Shown here piece after piece: positions 4,473 through 18,488 of a DNA stretch of 32,000 nucleotides; the first letter of the stretch is position 1; every line of letters starts with the position of its first letter. The notes under the pieces were generated by a model, which saw only the letters and a program-made list of their open reading frames with translations, did no database searches and was not told where the DNA came from. The DNA comes from an uncultured Myxococcales bacterium. Lineage in GTDB: Bacteria; Myxococcota_A; Polyangia; Polyangiales; Polyangiaceae. The translations under genes and the position numbers were made by a program. The stretch lies in contig CALFEQ010000194.1 in assembly GCA_937949945.1 (NCBI GenBank), positions 96,620 through 128,619 of the forward strand. Direction: 5' to 3'.

Positions 4473-5327
4473 TCACTGGATCGAGAACGTGACGCGCCCC
4501 GATCCGGCGTTGTCCGGGGGCAGCCCGGCTCCGTCCACGAACACGTAGTATCGCTTGCCCGCTTCGACGGGGAAGGTCAGCGTCTCGCCGCCGACCGAGC
4601 CGTTGTCGTTGACGCATGCGAGCCACTTGATGGAGTCCGCGGCGCACTCGTCGGAGACGTAGAGGAAGCTGTTGTAGTCGACGTCCTCGGTGCGCACCGT
4701 CATCGTCCCCGTGGCGTGCGCCACGACCGAGAAGATGCGGTCCGGCGCGGCCGCTCCGCTCGTCGGATTCGGGCCGCCGGTGCAGTTCGGGCTGACGCTC
4801 CGATTCCCCGAGCCCGTCGTCTGGACGACGATGGAGGGGCGGTGCTCCCCGCCCCAGACGTGCACGTCGATCCCGGGGCACGCGTTGCTCCTGGCGGGCG
4901 CGATGCCGGCGAGCTTGCAGCTCGAGTTGCAGCCGTCGGTCTCGTCCGAGTTCCCGTCGTCGCAGTCTTCTCCGTCCTGGACGACGGCATCTCCGCACTC
5001 CGCTTTCGACGGCGCACCGGAGTCGCGCTGAGGACGCTCGCCGTCGATCGGGTCGTGAGGCTCGAACGGATCGTCCGGATCGAACGGAATCTCGGGGTTG
5101 TCGAACGACTCGCACGGCTCGCAGGGCCCGAAGCTCTGGCCGTCTTCCTTGCAGAGCTTCGTGCCCTCCGACCGATCCTGGCACCGGCAGAAGACGTATT
5201 GGCCGGGCGTGCAGAGCTTCTCCTCCTTGGCCTTCGGCGACGTCGCGCAGGCGATCAAGACGGTGGCGGCGATGGCGGCGGCGCCGAGGGCGCTCGAAGC
5301 ACGAGAAACGAGGGGAGGGAAGAACAT
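4473..5327 (-). CDS. secreted lipoprotein: N-terminal Cys module + one myxobacterial Cys-rich repeat + PPC-like beta-sandwich
   Basis: The signal peptide has the lipobox LIAC. It carries a CTPGQYVFCRCQDRSEGTKLCKEDGQSFGPCEPC module and the repeat CGDAVVQDGEDCDDGNSDETDGCNSSC. The C-terminus (YYVFVDGAG...GRVTFSIQ) resembles a pre-peptidase C-terminal domain. It is a paralog of the next gene. Confidence 0.75.
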   Translation of the reverse strand: MFFPPLVSRASSALGAAAIAATVLIACATSPKAKEEKLCTPGQYVFCRCQDRSEGTKLCKEDGQSFGPCEPCESFDNPEIPFDPDDPFEPHDPIDGERPQRDSGAPSKAECGDAVVQDGEDCDDGNSDETDGCNSSCKLAGIAPARSNACPGIDVHVWGGEHRPSIVVQTTGSGNRSVSPNCTGGPNPTSGAAAPDRIFSVVAHATGTMTVRTEDVDYNSFLYVSDECAADSIKWLACVNDNGSVGGETLTFPVEAGKRYYVFVDGAGLPPDNAGSGRVTFSIQ

Positions 5328-5343
5328 GATGAGGTCGACGCTG

Positions 5344-6585
5344 CTACTCGAGCTCGAAGCTTATCGTGTAGTCCCCCTTGTTGCTCGTCACGCCGCCTCC
5401 GTCGACGGCGACCCAGATCTTCTGGTTCGCGGTCACACTGACCGTGAGCCTCTCGGGGCTGCTGCTCACGCCGAAGTCGTTCACGCACATGGCGGCCGTC
5501 ATCGTCGACGGATCGTCGCAGCTTCGGCGCGCCGTGAGCATGAAGTTCGTCGCAGTCGCCGGCGTGACCGTCACGACCATCGTCCCCGACGCGTGCGGGG
5601 TGACCTCGTAGACGTGGTCCTGATAGGCGTTCGAGAAGTCCTTGTCGCACGCCGCGGAAGGCTTGTTCCACGCGTTGCCGTAGGCCGCGGTCGATCCCGT
5701 GCCGGTCACGACCTGGCCCGGCCAGAGGTGGAGCGGGTGGCCCGGACAGCCGCCGCCGCTCGGCGGGTTGCCGTTCACCTTGCGGCAGTCGTTCGAGCAC
5801 CCGTCGTCGTCCGTCTTGTTGCCGTCGTCGCAGGCCTCGCCCTCGTCGATCTGTCCGTCGCCACAGAACGACCTCGTCGTGAGCTTCGCCGTGACGACGT
5901 ACTTGCCCGTCGAGCCGGACGCGCCGTCGATGACGAGATAGTAGCTCTTGCCGGTCACGACGTTCGTCTTGAGCTGCGCCGTCGATTGTGCCGTCGGCGG
6001 GGCGCACGCGACCTGCGCCTCCGCGTCGTCGCAGGTCGTGCGGATGTACGCGAGCGGGTTCAGGCCGTCGGACCCTTTCACTTGGATCTCGAGCGAGCCG
6101 CTCCCGGACGGGATGAGCCGGTAGACGTGGTCGTTCGCGCCGGCGCCGACGGCGCATGCTCCCGACCTGCCCTCGCGATCGCTCGTCGCCTTCGAGGTGT
6201 CGCCTTCGATCTTCAGCTCCACGTTGGGCAGGACGGCCGTCGACTTGCCGGGGCACTCGTTCTCCGCGTCGAGCGGCTCTTCTTTGCCGGGCTCGTAGTC
6301 GTCGGGCGGCGGGATGATCTCCTCGTTCGTCCGCTCGTCCGGGATCTCGCCGCCGCGGCACTCGCCGTTCTCGCTCGTCTGGCACGGCTCGAACGACTTG
6401 CCGTCCGGCTTGCACAGCTTCGTGCCCTCGGTGCGGTCGGCGCATCGGCAGAAGACGTAGGCGCCCGGCGTGCACAGCCGCTCTTCCTTGACCGGGCGCT
6501 CCTCGCCGAGCAGCGCGCAGCCTTGCGCCGCGATCAGGACGATCCCGAACGCCGCGACCGTTCCGAACAACCTACCGAGCCTCAT
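5344..6585 (-). CDS. secreted lipoprotein: N-terminal Cys module + PPC-like domain + Cys-rich repeat + second PPC-like domain
   Basis: The ORF runs 5344..6603. The preferred start is the second Met (MRLGRLFGTVAAFGIVLIAAQGC), which gives a lipoprotein signal. It carries CTPGAYVFCRCADRTEGTKLCKPDGKSFEPC and CGDGQIDEGEACDDGNKTDDDGCSNDC, plus two PPC-like endings (YYLVIDGASGSTGKYVVTAKL and WVAVDGGG...GDYTISFELE). Confidence 0.75.
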   Translation of the reverse strand: MRLGRLFGTVAAFGIVLIAAQGCALLGEERPVKEERLCTPGAYVFCRCADRTEGTKLCKPDGKSFEPCQTSENGECRGGEIPDERTNEEIIPPPDDYEPGKEEPLDAENECPGKSTAVLPNVELKIEGDTSKATSDREGRSGACAVGAGANDHVYRLIPSGSGSLEIQVKGSDGLNPLAYIRTTCDDAEAQVACAPPTAQSTAQLKTNVVTGKSYYLVIDGASGSTGKYVVTAKLTTRSFCGDGQIDEGEACDDGNKTDDDGCSNDCRKVNGNPPSGGGCPGHPLHLWPGQVVTGTGSTAAYGNAWNKPSAACDKDFSNAYQDHVYEVTPHASGTMVVTVTPATATNFMLTARRSCDDPSTMTAAMCVNDFGVSSSPERLTVSVTANQKIWVAVDGGGVTSNKGDYTISFELE

Positions 6586-7531
6586 CCCACCCTCCGAGCG
6601 CACCGGCTTGTGCCGGTGGGTCCACCCTCTTCGACGATGCGTCGATACGGGGCGAAGCCTTCCGCCGACGCGCGCGCGCGGCGAGGAGCCCCGAGCCGAC
6701 GATGATCCCCGCCACGCCGTAGGACGCTCCGGCGCCCGGCTGGATCGAGCACACCGTGGCCGGCTCGGGATCGTCGCAGCGCGGGCCGAAGCCGCCGCGC
6801 GGCTCCGTGTTGCACGGCGCGTCCGACGTCGACGGGTAGATCGCGCACACGGCCTCGATGTCGTCGGGGTGGAGCTCCCTCTGCGTGATCGAGCCGGGCG
6901 CGTACGACGGGTACATGACCGCGCCAGGGTGGGGCGAATGCGCGATGCCGATGAAGTGGCCGACCTCGTGCGTGAGGATCGCCTGGAGGTCGTACTGGAC
7001 CTTCGCCGGATCGTCCGTGATCGTGACGGTGTTGTTGGCCGTGTTGATCTCGATGTCGGCGTCGTAGATCTCGCCGGTCTCGTCGTTGTACGTGACGCTC
7101 GTCTTGGCGAGCGTGCCGTCGATTCCGCGGTACTTCCAGTCGTCGTCCTGGAAGAGGACGACGTTCACGTTCGGACCGTTCTTGTTGTATTGGCTCTTCT
7201 TGCACGGGACAGGCTCGCGCTCCTGGAACGTCATCTTCGCGATCGTCCCGTCCGGGCATTGGACGTCGCTCCACGCGAGGAACGTCTTCTTGATGACGGC
7301 GCGCGCGTCGGCCGGATCGAGATCCTGCGTGCCGAGCCGGTTCATCGCGTAGCTGACGCACGACGTGGGCCAGAACAGCTTTGCGCCTTCGATCGGGCAG
7401 CCGTCCTCGTCGGTGGCGCACTCCTTCTGGGGGGTGGAGCGGCACGTCGTCGATCGGCAGAACGCGGACGCTTCGCCCGCGGAGACGAGCAAGCCCAGCG
7501 CGAGACAGGCCGAGACGAGGAAGCGGGACAT
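6572..7531 (-). CDS. secreted zinc metalloprotease, matrixin (M10)-like, with MYXO-CTERM-like hydrophobic/basic tail
   Basis: The signal peptide ends ..SAGEASA. The zinc motif is HEVGHFIGIAHSPHPGAVMYP (HExxHxxGxxH plus Met-turn). The C-terminus reads CSIQPGAGASYGVAGIIVGSGLLAARARRRK. The stop overlaps the start of the next gene by about 14 nt, consistent with an operon. Confidence 0.85.
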   Translation of the reverse strand: MSRFLVSACLALGLLVSAGEASAFCRSTTCRSTPQKECATDEDGCPIEGAKLFWPTSCVSYAMNRLGTQDLDPADARAVIKKTFLAWSDVQCPDGTIAKMTFQEREPVPCKKSQYNKNGPNVNVVLFQDDDWKYRGIDGTLAKTSVTYNDETGEIYDADIEINTANNTVTITDDPAKVQYDLQAILTHEVGHFIGIAHSPHPGAVMYPSYAPGSITQRELHPDDIEAVCAIYPSTSDAPCNTEPRGGFGPRCDDPEPATVCSIQPGAGASYGVAGIIVGSGLLAARARRRKASPRIDASSKRVDPPAQAGALGGWDEAR

Positions 7532-9879: not shown

Positions 9880-10027
9880 CCTTGAACCCCGTGAACACGA
9901 GACCCTAACCGCGATCGACTGCGATTTCCAAGGCCCATGCGGCGGCCGGACGCGGAGGAGCTCTTGCGTGCGTCGCGGGACGACGGCGCGCGGCGATCGA
10001 AGGGCACGCCGTTTCCGCAGCGGCGAC

Positions 10028-10071
10028 AAAAAAGCCACGAGGGCGATCCGGTCACCCGGTCGCCCTCGTGG
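10028..10071 (-). terminator. Rho-independent terminator (minus strand)
   Basis: The minus strand reads CCACGAGGGCGA-CCGG-GTGA-CCGG-A-TCGCCCTCGTGG-C-TTTTTT. This is a perfect 12-bp GC-rich stem with a 4-bp extension, followed by six U. Confidence 0.8.
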
Positions 10072-12400
10072 TCGTTCGCTTTCCGTGGGGGAGCATCTTC
10101 TGCCCCGTTGCGGATCTCTGTCCGCCCCATTGGACGTTGCGTCAGGGGGCCTTTCCACCCGCCTGCGCCATCGTCGCGTTCGTATCGGGTGCCGTCACCA
10201 CGACCCCGGCCATTCGCGTGGTCAGGGAAGGGGACGATCGACGAAGCTATTCGCTGTCGTCAGCTTCGGCCGAGCACGATGCGGCGCACCGCTGGACCGG
10301 CGCCTTTTCAGCGCCGAGGATGCGGACTCCCCGTGGACCTTCTCGGACCTTGAAGAGCCTTCACCGAACCGCGTCGACCTCTGACGTTCCCATCGTCACT
10401 CGCAGGCACACCCGAGTCGAAACCCGCTTCGCCCGATGTGCTGGCCGGGTCACGTCCTCGCGGACGTCACGCGGCGTTGACCTGCGAGCCGAGGACTCCC
10501 GTGCCGCCCTGCCGGTGAGAGCCTGACGGCCAAGAGCCCGGGAACGCCTTCCATCGTATCGAGACCTCGCGAGCCGAAACCCACGAGTCGTGCGAAGAAG
10601 AACTGGTTGGAACGTCTTCCCACGCGCACCGTTTCGCCTTCTACCCATCCGCGCCCCGCGTCAGACGGAGCTACGGACTTCCTCCCGGCTAGCGCCCTTC
10701 GACACCACGAGGTCTTGCGACCTCCCGGTGGGAAAGACGCGCGATGCGTCCGACCGATGTCTGCCACCCAATCGAATCGCGCGCACCCGCACCTCGCTCG
10801 TTCCCGGCTCGCTCTCGCCGCTTTCGCGGCGGGGACGCCCCACGGAGTCTAAGGCTCCGCACGGCATGACCGGGGGACCGGACGTTTCACGACGTCCGAG
10901 ACCGCTTCGGCGGATCGTCATCGAACACGAACCTCGTGGTTTCGGCCGCGTTACCTCTGCCACGAGCGTGGGCGTTGTCTTCCCACGGCGCCCGATGCGA
11001 TCGAGCCTCTGACACCCCTGTCGCGGACCCCCGTTCACCCTCCGCCTCTCCAGGCTTCCCCGGAGCTGCAACCTGGCCGTACGTCCGTTCGTCGTCCGGC
11101 TCGTACGGGTCGGAAGATGCGGAGGCCGCCGAGATCATCGTCCACGCCGCCCCGTGAAAGACGACGCTTCGTGATGATCCGGGATGCCTTCCACCGGTAG
11201 GAGACCCTTCGTAGGATCCGGTGGCCATTACAGCCCCGGTCCCGCGACCGCATCACCGCTCGAGGCGATGCTGCGACCGCTGGATGGCGATCTCTCGCCA
11301 CCCTGGGCCCCGTGCCGGTCCTCTCCCGTCTCAGCGGTGAGGCCGACCCACGATTCGTCCCTTCGCCCGGCGTGCTCGCCGACGGTCGCCCGCCGACGCT
11401 CGCGCCGTGCTAGGCCCCCGTTCACTCGACCCTGACCGCCCTTTTTGGGGCGCGTGTGCCGAGCTTATTCGAGGCCAGACGTCGCCTACCGACTTGCTGC
11501 AACGAAACAACGACGTGCGGGCACCAACCGGAGCTTCCGATCCTCGCAGGGACGGAGACCTCGATCTCCTTCCTTTTCTGACGTGCCACGCCCTCTCCCA
11601 TCGAGGGGAGCGGTGACACGCGGCGAGCCGCGCGACGCCCGTTCGACCGACCCCAGGGCTGGTTCCTTCGGAAGATCCGATTTGCCCAGCCGTGATACCG
11701 GACCGAACGCCTCACCACCGAGGCTTTCGCCGCGGTGTAGAGTGAGGATCGACGCGCACGGGTCGAAGGACCGAGCGAAGGACGCGTCCTCCGTGGCAGC
11801 ACGCGTGCTTGCCAGGAGTGCATGCGCTTAGGGCGCATGCCCGACGGCGTTCCCCTCCTCGGCGACCTCCGGACATCCGCTGTCATCGGCGCGGCGCCGG
11901 CGCGGAGGGGATATCCGCGTCGTGCGACGGACCGATCTAGGTCCTCGTTCCGACGGCGCCCCGCGAAGAACGCCGCCTTCCGGAAGACCGGGATGCCTTC
12001 CACCGCCACGGTCGCCGACGGATCGCGAAGGGAATCCCTCCGGCCTCGGCGCCGGCCCTCTCGCTCACGCCGCCCACACTTCGTCCCCAGGTCGGAGACG
12101 GTGCCTTCACGGGCATTGCAAGCTCACGGCGCGGTCACCCGCGTTCCCGTGATTTCGAGAGTGCAGACACCTTTTTCACCCGCTGGATTCCGCGCCTGGA
12201 GCTGACGACCCAAGCACGCCACCGGGCTCGGCCGGCTCGGCCGTCGACGAGGTCAGGTTGCCCCGCTCGCACCGATGCCGGCCGCAGTGCCTTGACGGCT
12301 TCTACGACCAGAAGCTCACGGCCCGATGTGCCGCGAACTTCATGAGCGCTTTATGCCCGAACGGCTCCGGCATCGCAACGGAAAAATTCGCGGCTCAATC
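10072..12400. other. ORF-poor, hairpin-dense, internally repetitive non-coding region (candidate structured RNA locus and/or origin-flanking DNA)
   Basis: The longest ORF is 195 aa, and all ORFs here are Arg-rich with no third-position GC bias. GC is locally lower (my hand count of 11461-11520 gives 35/60). Many perfect hairpins and exact internal repeats are present; see findings. Confidence 0.5.
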
Positions 12401-12406
12401 ACTTTT

Positions 12407-12427
12407 TTATCCACAGGATTATCCACA
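12407..12427 (+). promoter_or_regulatory. two perfect consensus DnaA boxes, direct orientation, 12 nt start-to-start
   Basis: TTATCCACA occurs at 12407-12415 and again at 12419-12427. Confidence 0.75.
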
Positions 12428-12507
12428 GCGCACTCCACTGTGTGGGTGCCTTGAATTTACGGTTGCCCGTGTTTTTCGACGCGAGAGCGCGCGGAAAACG
12501 CGAGGCG

Positions 12508-12516
12508 TCGTGCGCC
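12508..12516 (-). promoter_or_regulatory. DnaA box (8/9 match), inverted relative to the pair at 12407-12427
   Basis: The plus strand reads tgtggaaaa, which is TTTTCCACA on the minus strand. Confidence 0.55.
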
Positions 12517-12564
12517 CTGTGGAAAACTCATGCAATTGATTTGTAATCGTATTGGCTAGAAAGT

Positions 12565-12603
12565 GGATTTGATTTTGGTGTTTGATTTTCTCGATTGATC
12601 GAG
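12565..12603. repeat. AT-rich tandem 13-mer-like repeats (candidate DNA unwinding element)
   Basis: The sequence is ggatttgattttggtgtttgattttctcgattgatcgagg. tttgatttt occurs at 12568-12576 and 12581-12589 (period 13), followed by a degenerate third copy (attgatcga). Confidence 0.5.
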
Positions 12604-12773
12604 GCGAAGGCCGCGCGACGACGGCGTGCTTTGCTCGCGAGCTCCTCCGCCGCAGGTCATCGCGCCGCACGTGCGCCTTCGCGCGATCCGAGAGCGTCGT
12701 CCCGCACGTGGAACGGTCCTTCCCGACAGCCGTCCTTGTGGCTCCTCGCTCGAGGCCCGACATTCCGAAGACG

Positions 12774-13577
12774 ATGAGTGCCTCGATGCCGACCCTCTAC
12801 ATCCCGCACGGAGGCGGGCCGTGCTTCTTCATGGAGTGGACGATGGGGCCGCCCGACACCTGGGATCGCATGGCCGCGTGGCTCCGCAGCATCCCGGGCT
12901 CGCTCCCGCGCGCTCCGTCGGCGCTGCTCGTGGTGTCGGCGCACTGGGAGGCGGACGTCCCGACCGTCCTCGCCTCGGAGGCGCCGCCGCTGCTCTACGA
13001 CTACTACGGGTTCCCGCCACATACGTACGAGCTCGAGTGGCCGGCGCCGGGATCGCCCGCGCTCGCGAGTCGCGTGCGCGAGCTGCTCTCGCGTGCGGGC
13101 ATCGCCTCCGCGGCGGAGACCGAGCGAGGCTTCGACCACGGCGTGTTCATCCCGCTGAAGGTCGCCTTCCCGGAAGCTCGAATCCCGACGGTGCAGCTCT
13201 CGCTCCAGCGTGGGCTCGATCCGAAGACGCACCTCGCCATCGGAAGGGCGCTCGCGCCGCTACGCGACGAGGGCGTCCTCTTGATCGGCAGCGGGATGAG
13301 CTACCACGACATGCGCGGCCTCTGGTCCGGCACCGGCCGCGCGGTCTCGGAGGCATTCGAGCGATGGCTCACCGACGTCGTGTCGAAGGACGCGGCGGCG
13401 CGCGAGGCCGATCTCGTCGCGTGGGAGAAGGCGCCGGGCGGCCGCGCGAGCCATCCGCGCGAGGAGCACCTGCTACCGCTCATGGTCGTCGCCGGGGCCG
13501 CCGGAGCGGACCGCGGCGAGCGCGTCTTCTCGGACGAGGTGATGGGCGCACGCGTCGCGGCGATCCGCTTCGGCTGA
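12774..13577 (+). CDS. class III extradiol ring-cleavage dioxygenase, LigB/YgiD (4,5-DOPA dioxygenase)-like
   Basis: The start was chosen at the internal Met (MSASMPTLYIPHGGGP) of ORF 12582..13577. Family motifs are present: VVSAHWE, GFDHGVFIPL, GSGMSYHD and EEHLLPLMV. Confidence 0.8.
   Translation: MSASMPTLYIPHGGGPCFFMEWTMGPPDTWDRMAAWLRSIPGSLPRAPSALLVVSAHWEADVPTVLASEAPPLLYDYYGFPPHTYELEWPAPGSPALASRVRELLSRAGIASAAETERGFDHGVFIPLKVAFPEARIPTVQLSLQRGLDPKTHLAIGRALAPLRDEGVLLIGSGMSYHDMRGLWSGTGRAVSEAFERWLTDVVSKDAAAREADLVAWEKAPGGRASHPREEHLLPLMVVAGAAGADRGERVFSDEVMGARVAAIRFG

Positions 13578-15566: not shown

Positions 15567-18488
<2,922 letters not shown>

Follow-up and report, generated by a model that had tools for sequence, protein, structure and literature searches.

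A conserved cluster of DnaA boxes and AT-rich 13-mers beside a large structured RNA gene in Polyangia, and its candidacy as a replication origin

We analysed a 32-kb stretch of DNA from an uncultured Myxococcales bacterium of the family Polyangiaceae (contig CALFEQ010000194.1, positions 96,620 to 128,619 of the forward strand). This whole stretch, 69% G+C, is called the window below. At 12380-12604 it holds a compact module in which three strong boxes for the replication initiator DnaA stand next to an AT-rich tract with tandem 13-mers. To the left of the module, and starting beside its boxes, lies a minus-strand gene for a structured non-coding RNA. To the right lies a gene for a LigB-family dioxygenase, which we regard as a neighbour outside the module. 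The features are collected in Table 1. The elements of the module occur far beyond chance expectation, and their order and spacing are kept across diverged genomes.

Table 1. Features of the module and its neighbours (positions in the window)
Feature	Position	Strand	Remarks
Structured non-coding RNA gene, ~2.3 kb	10028-12345	-	5' end uncertain by ~6 nt
Intrinsic terminator of the large RNA	10028-10071	-	16-bp G+C-rich hairpin 10035-10071, then U6 10028-10033
Candidate sigma-70-type promoter of the RNA	12350-12378	-	-35 TTGCGA 12373-12378, 17-nt spacer, -10 CATAAA 12350-12355
A-tract/T-tract segment	12380-12406		joins promoter to boxes; UP-element-like; has TCAAT/ATTGA motif
Tandem DnaA boxes, TTATCCACA gga TTATCCACA	12407-12415, 12419-12427	+	both perfect; 12 nt start to start
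Spacer, G+C-rich, ~90 bp	12428-12517		between tandem pair and inverted box
Inverted DnaA box	12518-12526	-	TTTTCCACA on the minus strand, TGTGGAAAA on the plus strand; adjoins AT-rich tract
AT-rich candidate unwinding element	12527-12604		TTGA at 12536, then three 13-mers 12566-12604
LigB-family dioxygenase gene	12786-13577	+	Pfam LigB E = 1.5e-27; 263 aa in public assemblies

A scan for DnaA boxes with at most one mismatch found just these three sites in the 32 kb, against 0.46 expected, and three or more matches arose in 0 of 100 shuffles. With the relaxed consensus TTWTNCACA the window held three sites against 0.11 expected. All three strong boxes fall within 120 bp, a cluster of the kind expected at oriC, where near-consensus boxes lie within a few hundred bp of each other. 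An earlier note, made from the letters of the window, had described two perfect boxes at 12407 and 12419, 12 nt apart, and the scan recovered both. The note had also reported a box in the opposite orientation; this box exists, and only its position had to be moved by 10 nt, from 12508-12516 to 12518-12526. Two further sites listed there as weaker boxes (12441-12449 and 12562-12570) did not survive. Each has three mismatches, was missed by a scan that allowed two, and varies freely in relatives, and the two are no better than chance.

Within the AT-rich tract, TTGA occurs at 12569, 12582 and 12595, an exact 13-nt period over three units, and the pattern was found once in the window against 0.00 expected from shuffles. 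The repetition of tttgatttt at 12568 and 12581 with a 13-nt period had been recognised before, and the unit at 12595 adds a third. The accompanying argument that such A/T-rich recurrence was unlikely by chance agrees with the counts of boxes and 13-nt repeats, both far above expectation. The tract had also been singled out as exceptional in the window, and the calculated duplex stability bears this out: 12521-12600 is the least stable duplex of the window (80 bp, 66% AT, z = 5.6). The run of three 13-mers starts ~40 bp from the box at 12518-12526, which is the layout of an E. coli-type DNA unwinding element, where three tandem AT-rich 13-mers flank a box. As a sequence feature, the tract therefore qualifies as a candidate unwinding element.

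We compared the module with its counterparts in Labilithrix- and Polyangiaceae-like metagenome-assembled genomes (MAGs) and in metagenomes, all of the class Polyangia and ranging from 55 to 74% G+C. A search with a 19-mer from the 5' end of the RNA returned 38 metagenome loci, two of them probably chance matches. Long contigs with the module include MKVQ01000005.1 (755 kb, module near 540 kb), Ga0164290_1000019 (630 kb) and ERZ778025 NODE-52 (395 kb). Boxes and repeats were counted in the 26 distinct loci with enough sequence, and 27 distinct loci entered a stack of promoter sequences. At least two tandem boxes were present in 25 of the 26 loci, at +80 to +116 from the 19-mer, and Polyangiaceae-type loci carried three or four boxes with a period of 11-13 nt. 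An inverted TGTGGAnAA followed ~100 bp past the tandem boxes, at the same offset, in 11 of 11 loci of the window's clade; its position there, +190 to +192, means that the length of the spacer is kept. TTGA-N9-TTGA was found at +232 to +255 in 17 of the 26 loci, where the background is 0.0005 for a stretch of that size. A search with the LigB protein, independent of the RNA, led to five loci in which the box triplet recurs ~490 bp upstream of LigB, and the evidence for conservation of the module is thus not solely based on the RNA search. The closest of the LigB loci were in MAGs named Labilithrix sp., Myxococcales and Polyangiaceae, which puts the window in Myxococcota, class Polyangia. The right-hand neighbour varied between loci and could be LigB, the 3' end of a gene for a hypothetical protein of ~600 aa, a glycosidase gene or an adenosine-deaminase-like gene. 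Because the AT-rich repeats are kept where this neighbour changes or is the 3' end of a gene, they are part of the unit of boxes and RNA and not of the neighbour's promoter. Boxes followed by AT-rich 13-mers had been called the classic layout of an origin; that description holds, and the fixed spacing across diverged Polyangia strengthens it.

The spacer holds a small G+C hairpin with a T5 run at 12458-12476 on the plus strand, which resembles a terminator. The scan of the window listed it, and inspection by eye showed a hairpin with a T-run at the corresponding place in relatives. It may serve to bend the DNA or to terminate antisense transcripts.

The minus-strand neighbour of the module is a structured RNA gene. 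From 9880 to 12786 no gene is called in public assemblies and codon positions show no G+C bias. The segment 10031-12380 aligns over 2.3-2.5 kb to three of the relatives found through LigB, with BLAST identities of 76-81%; among the four sequences of the RNA region pairwise identity is 76-86%, and the edges of the conserved block are sharp. The region had been described as a non-coding desert, a label that does not suit a structured RNA gene of which 10031-12380 is 76-86% identical between relatives. Substitutions lack a 3-nt periodicity, indels are mostly of 1-2 nt, and none of ten open reading frames (ORFs) of the region matched Pfam. A coding region was accordingly rejected, on the absence of periodicity both in substitutions and in third-position G+C (GC3), on the 1-2 nt indels and on the missing Pfam match. 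The minus strand of the region is G-rich. A consensus fold of ten full-length homologues reached -939.6 kcal/mol in the sense direction (minus strand) versus -590.7 in antisense, with 744 predicted pairs and 95.8% of cells paired. Compensatory double changes were seen in 224 pairs, compared with 38-55 when the partners were slid by 1-3 columns. Across 22 diverse sequences of the 5' 180 nt, 19 of 40 pairs covary, the observed score was attained in 0 of 500 shuffles, and 91% of cells pair versus 35-44% when slid. The terminator folds at -40.3 kcal/mol (z = -4.6), and it is there that the sequence-conserved block begins.

Homologues of the RNA were found at L003, L005, L068 and L077-L113. Several environmental contigs of 2.0-2.5 kb consist of the RNA element alone, starting 3-62 nt from the conserved 5' end and stopping at the foot of the terminator; L077, L104 and L081 end at its 5' foot. 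Some of these RNA-only contigs have Joint Genome Institute (JGI) contig ranks of 143-2543 at just ~2.3 kb, which is typical of metatranscriptome assemblies. From such transcript-like contigs we infer that the large RNA is expressed, and their starts, 3-89 nt upstream of the RNA 5' end, disagree with one another. A search of Rfam 15 gave no match at the gathering score, none at E <= 10 for the window region and none at E <= 0.1 for eight homologous loci, and a scan for tRNA and tmRNA found nothing. No description of this large RNA was found in the literature searched, and the family, of ~2.0-2.4 kb, is apparently undescribed. At the conserved 5' end starts a short ORF (MKFAAHRAVSFWS followed by a stop, 12303-12344 on the minus strand; MKFAAHR...). 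It was rejected as coding because it spans 10-14 codons across homologues and shows no wobble variation, all codon positions being conserved. This conservation fits a constraint on the RNA, in the predicted helix 1, rather than on a protein.

We examined the stretch between the RNA and the boxes in the stack of 27 loci. On the sense strand the same order was found in 27 of 27: an A-run, ~14 nt, a T-run, TTGnnn, 17 nt, an A-rich hexamer, 4-7 nt and the conserved RNA 5' end. The TTG of the -35 element is nearly invariant in this ungapped stack, as judged by eye. The layout is plausible as a sigma-70-type promoter with an UP-like tract. A generic promoter scan of the window did not call it, because position 6 of the -10 element is not T. 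The A- and T-runs of the segment 12380-12406 are kept in all 27 loci, and the segment would act like an UP element. The TTGA/ATTGA motif of the 13-mers recurs once in this segment, at 12396-12402, in the opposite orientation (TCAAT on the plus strand, ATTGA on the minus strand) and between the boxes and the RNA promoter. It is kept as GTGATTGAGC or GCATTGTT in most loci and may bind a second protein, which would bracket the DnaA boxes.

In all 27 loci the DnaA boxes lie 29-54 bp upstream of the conserved -35 element of the predicted RNA promoter. A DnaA-regulated promoter is expected to have a box within ~100 bp, and this is what we found, the promoter being a predicted one. With the tandem boxes so close upstream of this element, regulation of the promoter by DnaA has to be taken seriously as a rival to an origin; the earlier note had not listed it. 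The module might be only the upstream regulatory region of the RNA gene, with the chromosome origin elsewhere; we consider this, the main alternative, possible and on balance unlikely. DnaA on the tandem boxes (at about -65 to -85) might then activate or repress the RNA promoter according to the level of DnaA-ATP, a tentative suggestion. The 13-nt TTGA repeats might bind another regulator or serve as a curved or easily melted upstream element, and this too we put forward tentatively. Consistent with such a role, the RNA gene is the sole invariant neighbour of the module, the other flank changing between lineages. In addition, the upstream box together with its spacer spells GATAAT, a possible -10 element of a second promoter, and some of the transcript-like contigs begin upstream of the main 5' end, by 49-89 nt. 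Regulation alone, however, accounts poorly for the architecture: two to four boxes with a period of 11-13 nt, a facing box 90 bp off and three exact 13-mers at a fixed distance of ~150 bp exceed what known DnaA-regulated promoters contain, and the AT-rich tract is the extreme stability minimum of the 32 kb.

A second argument against regulation alone comes from a locus that has lost the RNA. One MAG (JAFAER01, isolate OH_SBlB_141) holds two orthologous loci, L001 and L002, whose LigB proteins are ~81% identical; these two versions of one locus suggest that the MAG is a mixed bin of two related organisms. L001 (contig 263) is without the 2.3-kb RNA; a hairpin stands in its place together with two protein genes, one of which encodes a receiver-domain protein. 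L001 keeps the left-flank synteny of the window, a diverged promoter and LigB. Of the module it retains the tandem boxes, each with one mismatch, as well as the inverted box and TTTGA repeats. The module can therefore persist without the RNA, and its survival beside two protein genes is not what a mere control region of the RNA gene would predict. In this part of L001 (9140-9520) the hairpin that takes the place of the RNA is palindromic, GTTTTCCCCAGGCTGGGGAAAAC.

Other relatives differ in what follows the AT-rich repeats. Eight distinct loci (L002, L005, L068, L080, L091, L093, L094 and L097) carry a 15-mer, TGTCAC[GA][CT]GATCGTT, with a CACGTG-like palindromic core. The 15-mer falls past the repeats and before the next gene, +348 to +353 relative to the RNA 19-mer. 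It is missing from the window, where the best match has six mismatches and where a deletion of ~110 bp falls at this place. Beyond the 15-mer, at about +450, lies a conserved box-like site, CTGTGGAnAG. In L085, L088, L076, L111 and L082, loci of the high-GC lineages, a minus-strand gene ends beside the AT-rich repeats and encodes a hypothetical protein of ~570-600 aa; the family has no Pfam domain and 138 homologues (E <= 1e-10), some from Polyangiaceae MAGs. This ~600-aa flanking protein of the Polyangiaceae-type loci was traced to the megabase contigs L119 and L120 (3.5 Mb and 1.9 Mb), in which the module does not adjoin it. In L113 the module gives way abruptly, from about +230, to rpoC-like coding sequence, and because of this switch the locus looks chimeric. 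The right-hand end of L079 is Illumina adapter sequence (AGATCGGAAGAGCACACGTCTGAACTCCAGTCAC).

DnaA boxes also occur at loci that are not origins, such as datA, DARS1 and DARS2 of E. coli, the DnaA-box clusters of B. subtilis and the promoters of dnaA, mioC and nrdAB. The module resembles these in having high-affinity boxes outside the dnaA region and close to a promoter. It might be a datA/DARS-like locus or a non-origin cluster of boxes beside the RNA gene, titrating DnaA or changing its nucleotide state. Control loci of the datA/DARS type combine a box cluster with IHF/Fis sites and have no unwinding element. High-affinity boxes in both orientations, away from dnaA and conserved across relatives, would suit such a role, as would the lack of origin-indicator genes nearby. 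We think it improbable, since the window has only three strong boxes, and since datA and DARS need no tandem AT-rich 13-mers, whereas here the 13-mers are conserved at a fixed distance. None of the non-origin loci named above is known to pair its boxes with conserved tandem AT-rich 13-mers at a constant distance, as the module does.

The genes of the window include Obg, Lon, an H+-pyrophosphatase, the LigB-type dioxygenase and several proteins with DUF4215, the myxococcal cysteine-rich repeat. The dioxygenase flank of the module had been recognised in the earlier note, and its family proved to be LigB. The stretches 4473-6603 and 15567-18488 encode three DUF4215 proteins (one of 973 aa with at least eight repeats), a matrixin and a trypsin-like protease, and the neighbourhood is rich in secreted proteins, as is typical of predatory myxobacteria. 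Identical proteins were found on metagenome contigs of up to 123 kb. The window has no rep, par or integrase genes, and no parS match at up to three mismatches. Comparison with 72,556 plasmids and 50,697 phages gave no similarity, and viral contigs gave no match. These results bear on the idea that the locus is the origin of a secondary replicon, as the earlier note had considered, or of an integrated plasmid or another mobile element. A position away from dnaA would agree with it, and a long RNA by an origin recalls the primer and regulator RNAs of plasmids. However, the flanks are housekeeping (Obg, Lon, H+-pyrophosphatase) and syntenic with those of relatives, neither rep, par and integrase genes nor plasmid, phage or viral-contig similarity was found, and the RNA cannot prime at the AT-rich tract because it is transcribed away from it. 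We rejected a plasmid, phage or mobile-element origin on these grounds and regard it as very improbable.

Several results weigh against a chromosomal origin at this place or are neutral. The window and the 6.4 kb to its left, which together reach from about -19 kb to +19.5 kb relative to the module, contain no dnaA, dnaN, parB, gidA, recF or gyrB, in accord with the earlier statement that dnaA and dnaN are not nearby; such indicator genes are common, though not universal, beside an origin. Motif scans of 120 loci, made without a Polyangia DnaA query, found no origin-marker gene within 10-19 kb. Pooled over flanks of 10-20 kb, the GC skew was +0.012 to the left and 0.000 to the right of the module, with no flip within these flanks; the earlier note had proposed such a check on the whole replicon. 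The replication component of the GC3 skew was -0.004 on the left and +0.006 on the right. The KOPS-like (FtsK-orienting polar sequence) motif GGGNAGGG was biased to the plus strand on both sides (7:1 left, 6:3 right), and gene orientation (+:-) was 26:21 on the left, leaning toward the module, and 38:29 on the right, both with small counts; gene orientation had already been said to give no clear support. Local GC skew and flipped k-mer skews showed no signal at the module, and some composition tests were confounded by the coding strand. The basal unwinding system (BUS) of B. subtilis follows a rule of at least three DnaA-trios (3'-NAN-5') at most 16 bp from a box, on the 3' side of the TTATCCACA-sense strand (PMC8287927). 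Beside the tandem boxes the longest run of trios is 1-2; a run of five, 13 nt away from the inverted box, falls on its wrong side and is not kept in L005. The inverted box, which adjoins the AT-rich tract, points the other way from R1 of E. coli and from box 6/7 of B. subtilis. Lastly, that the boxes are linked to the RNA promoter without a break is accounted for most simply by cis-regulation, a role that is favoured as well by the lack of replication genes nearby and of a skew flip.

The locus could be an origin and a DnaA-regulated promoter at once; the boxes in the origins of B. subtilis and E. coli likewise regulate promoters next to them. Weighing the conserved architecture against these points, we favour with moderate confidence the reading that 12380-12604 is an oriC-type module for DnaA assembly and DNA unwinding, probably the chromosomal origin of the lineage, with boxes that would also serve the RNA promoter. 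That DnaA binds here, that the tract unwinds, that the module fires as an origin and that any of this is coupled to transcription, we infer from the arrangement of the sequence. In an origin of this kind, DnaA-ATP would fill the high-affinity tandem pair at 12407-12427 as well as the inverted box at 12518-12526. DnaA on the pair and DnaA on the inverted box would then interact across the conserved ~90-bp spacer, possibly with the help of a DNA-bending protein, and the interaction would open the adjacent three 13-mers (12566-12604) for helicase loading. The RNA promoter, ~30 bp from the boxes, would fire away from the unwinding element and leave negative supercoiling behind RNA polymerase, and DnaA might in turn modulate this promoter. 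Transcription of the RNA gene would run in the same direction as the leftward fork.

This arrangement can be compared with known origins. The oriC of E. coli comprises an unwinding element of three 13-mers, the R1 box, a bend and a DnaA-oligomerisation region. Like it, the module has three tandem AT-rich 13-mers with one adjoining box, further boxes of the same orientation with gaps of 2-4 bp ~100 bp away, and a strong promoter, predicted in the module and that of gidA in E. coli, directed away from the unwinding side. Unlike it, the module has TTGA-based 13-mers rather than GATCTnTTnTTTT, an AT-adjacent box opposite to R1 and just three strong boxes, and neither gidA, mioC nor another origin-marker gene is near. 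The origin of Caulobacter crescentus, Cori, is not flanked by dnaA-dnaN and contains the strong hemE promoter Ps, transcription from which is tied to initiation. The candidate origin likewise contains a predicted promoter and is not flanked by dnaA-dnaN, and differs in having a giant RNA gene as its neighbour instead of hemE; CtrA-type TTAA-N7-TTAA sites were not noted in it, no search aimed at them having been made. A distal group of boxes combined with an unwinding-proximal box is the layout of B. subtilis incC and of E. coli oriC (PMC6669920). The tandem pair a few bp apart also recalls the incC/BUS region of B. subtilis (PMC6669920, PMC8287927), where the distal boxes tolerate distances of 132-462 bp (PMC6669920, PMC8287927). 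In contrast to BUS, the correctly oriented tandem pair lies 112 bp from the first trio-like run, and this run is not conserved in relatives.

The closest comparison by class is Sorangium, also of the Polyangia. Its chromosome shows no inversion of GC skew, dnaA lies ~2 Mb from dnaN, and the origin is unresolved (PMC2650636, PMC8538405); because of this, an origin away from dnaA would be unsurprising in Polyangia. For Sorangium cellulosum an in-silico proposal places oriC in a 629-bp spacer adjacent to dnaN with three weak TTATCCCCC boxes (Gao and Zhang 2008, PMC2650636). The module shares with it a predicted position away from dnaA and a weak GC skew, and the last box of Polyangiaceae-type arrays, TTGTCCCC, is close to the Sorangium TTATCCCCC motif. 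The differences are that the boxes of the module are perfect and conserved, that dnaN is not nearby and that a 2.3-kb RNA gene abuts.

The RNA itself also has counterparts of a general kind. Its ~2.0-2.4 kb make it some three to four times longer than the large bacterial RNAs GOLLD, ROOL and OLE. Like these (PMC12286853), it is long, highly structured and apparently abundant, with extensive covariation. It differs in being a Polyangia RNA with no match in Rfam 15 and with tandem DnaA boxes upstream in 25 of 26 loci. In its boldest form, which we consider unlikely, the origin reading would have the Polyangia origin stand apart from dnaA and dnaN and be physically and functionally fused to the RNA gene, with transcription or the RNA itself a part of initiation control. 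Such control would work, for example, through opening driven by supercoiling, or through an RNA that binds or scaffolds initiation proteins. If this were true, the RNA would be the largest known bacterial non-coding RNA outside the ribosome.

Sorangium-type myxobacteria have genomes among the largest of bacteria, and their origin has never been convincingly located, GC skew having failed and the sole proposal being the in-silico site with weak boxes (PMC2650636, PMC8538405). For a clade with an open origin question, the conserved module of boxes and 13-mers offers a concrete and testable origin candidate. The tandem boxes at the RNA promoter suggest that the replication initiator and a giant RNA are connected, and we found no description of such a connection in the literature searched. 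Whatever the answer about the origin, the module marks a new and very large structured RNA.

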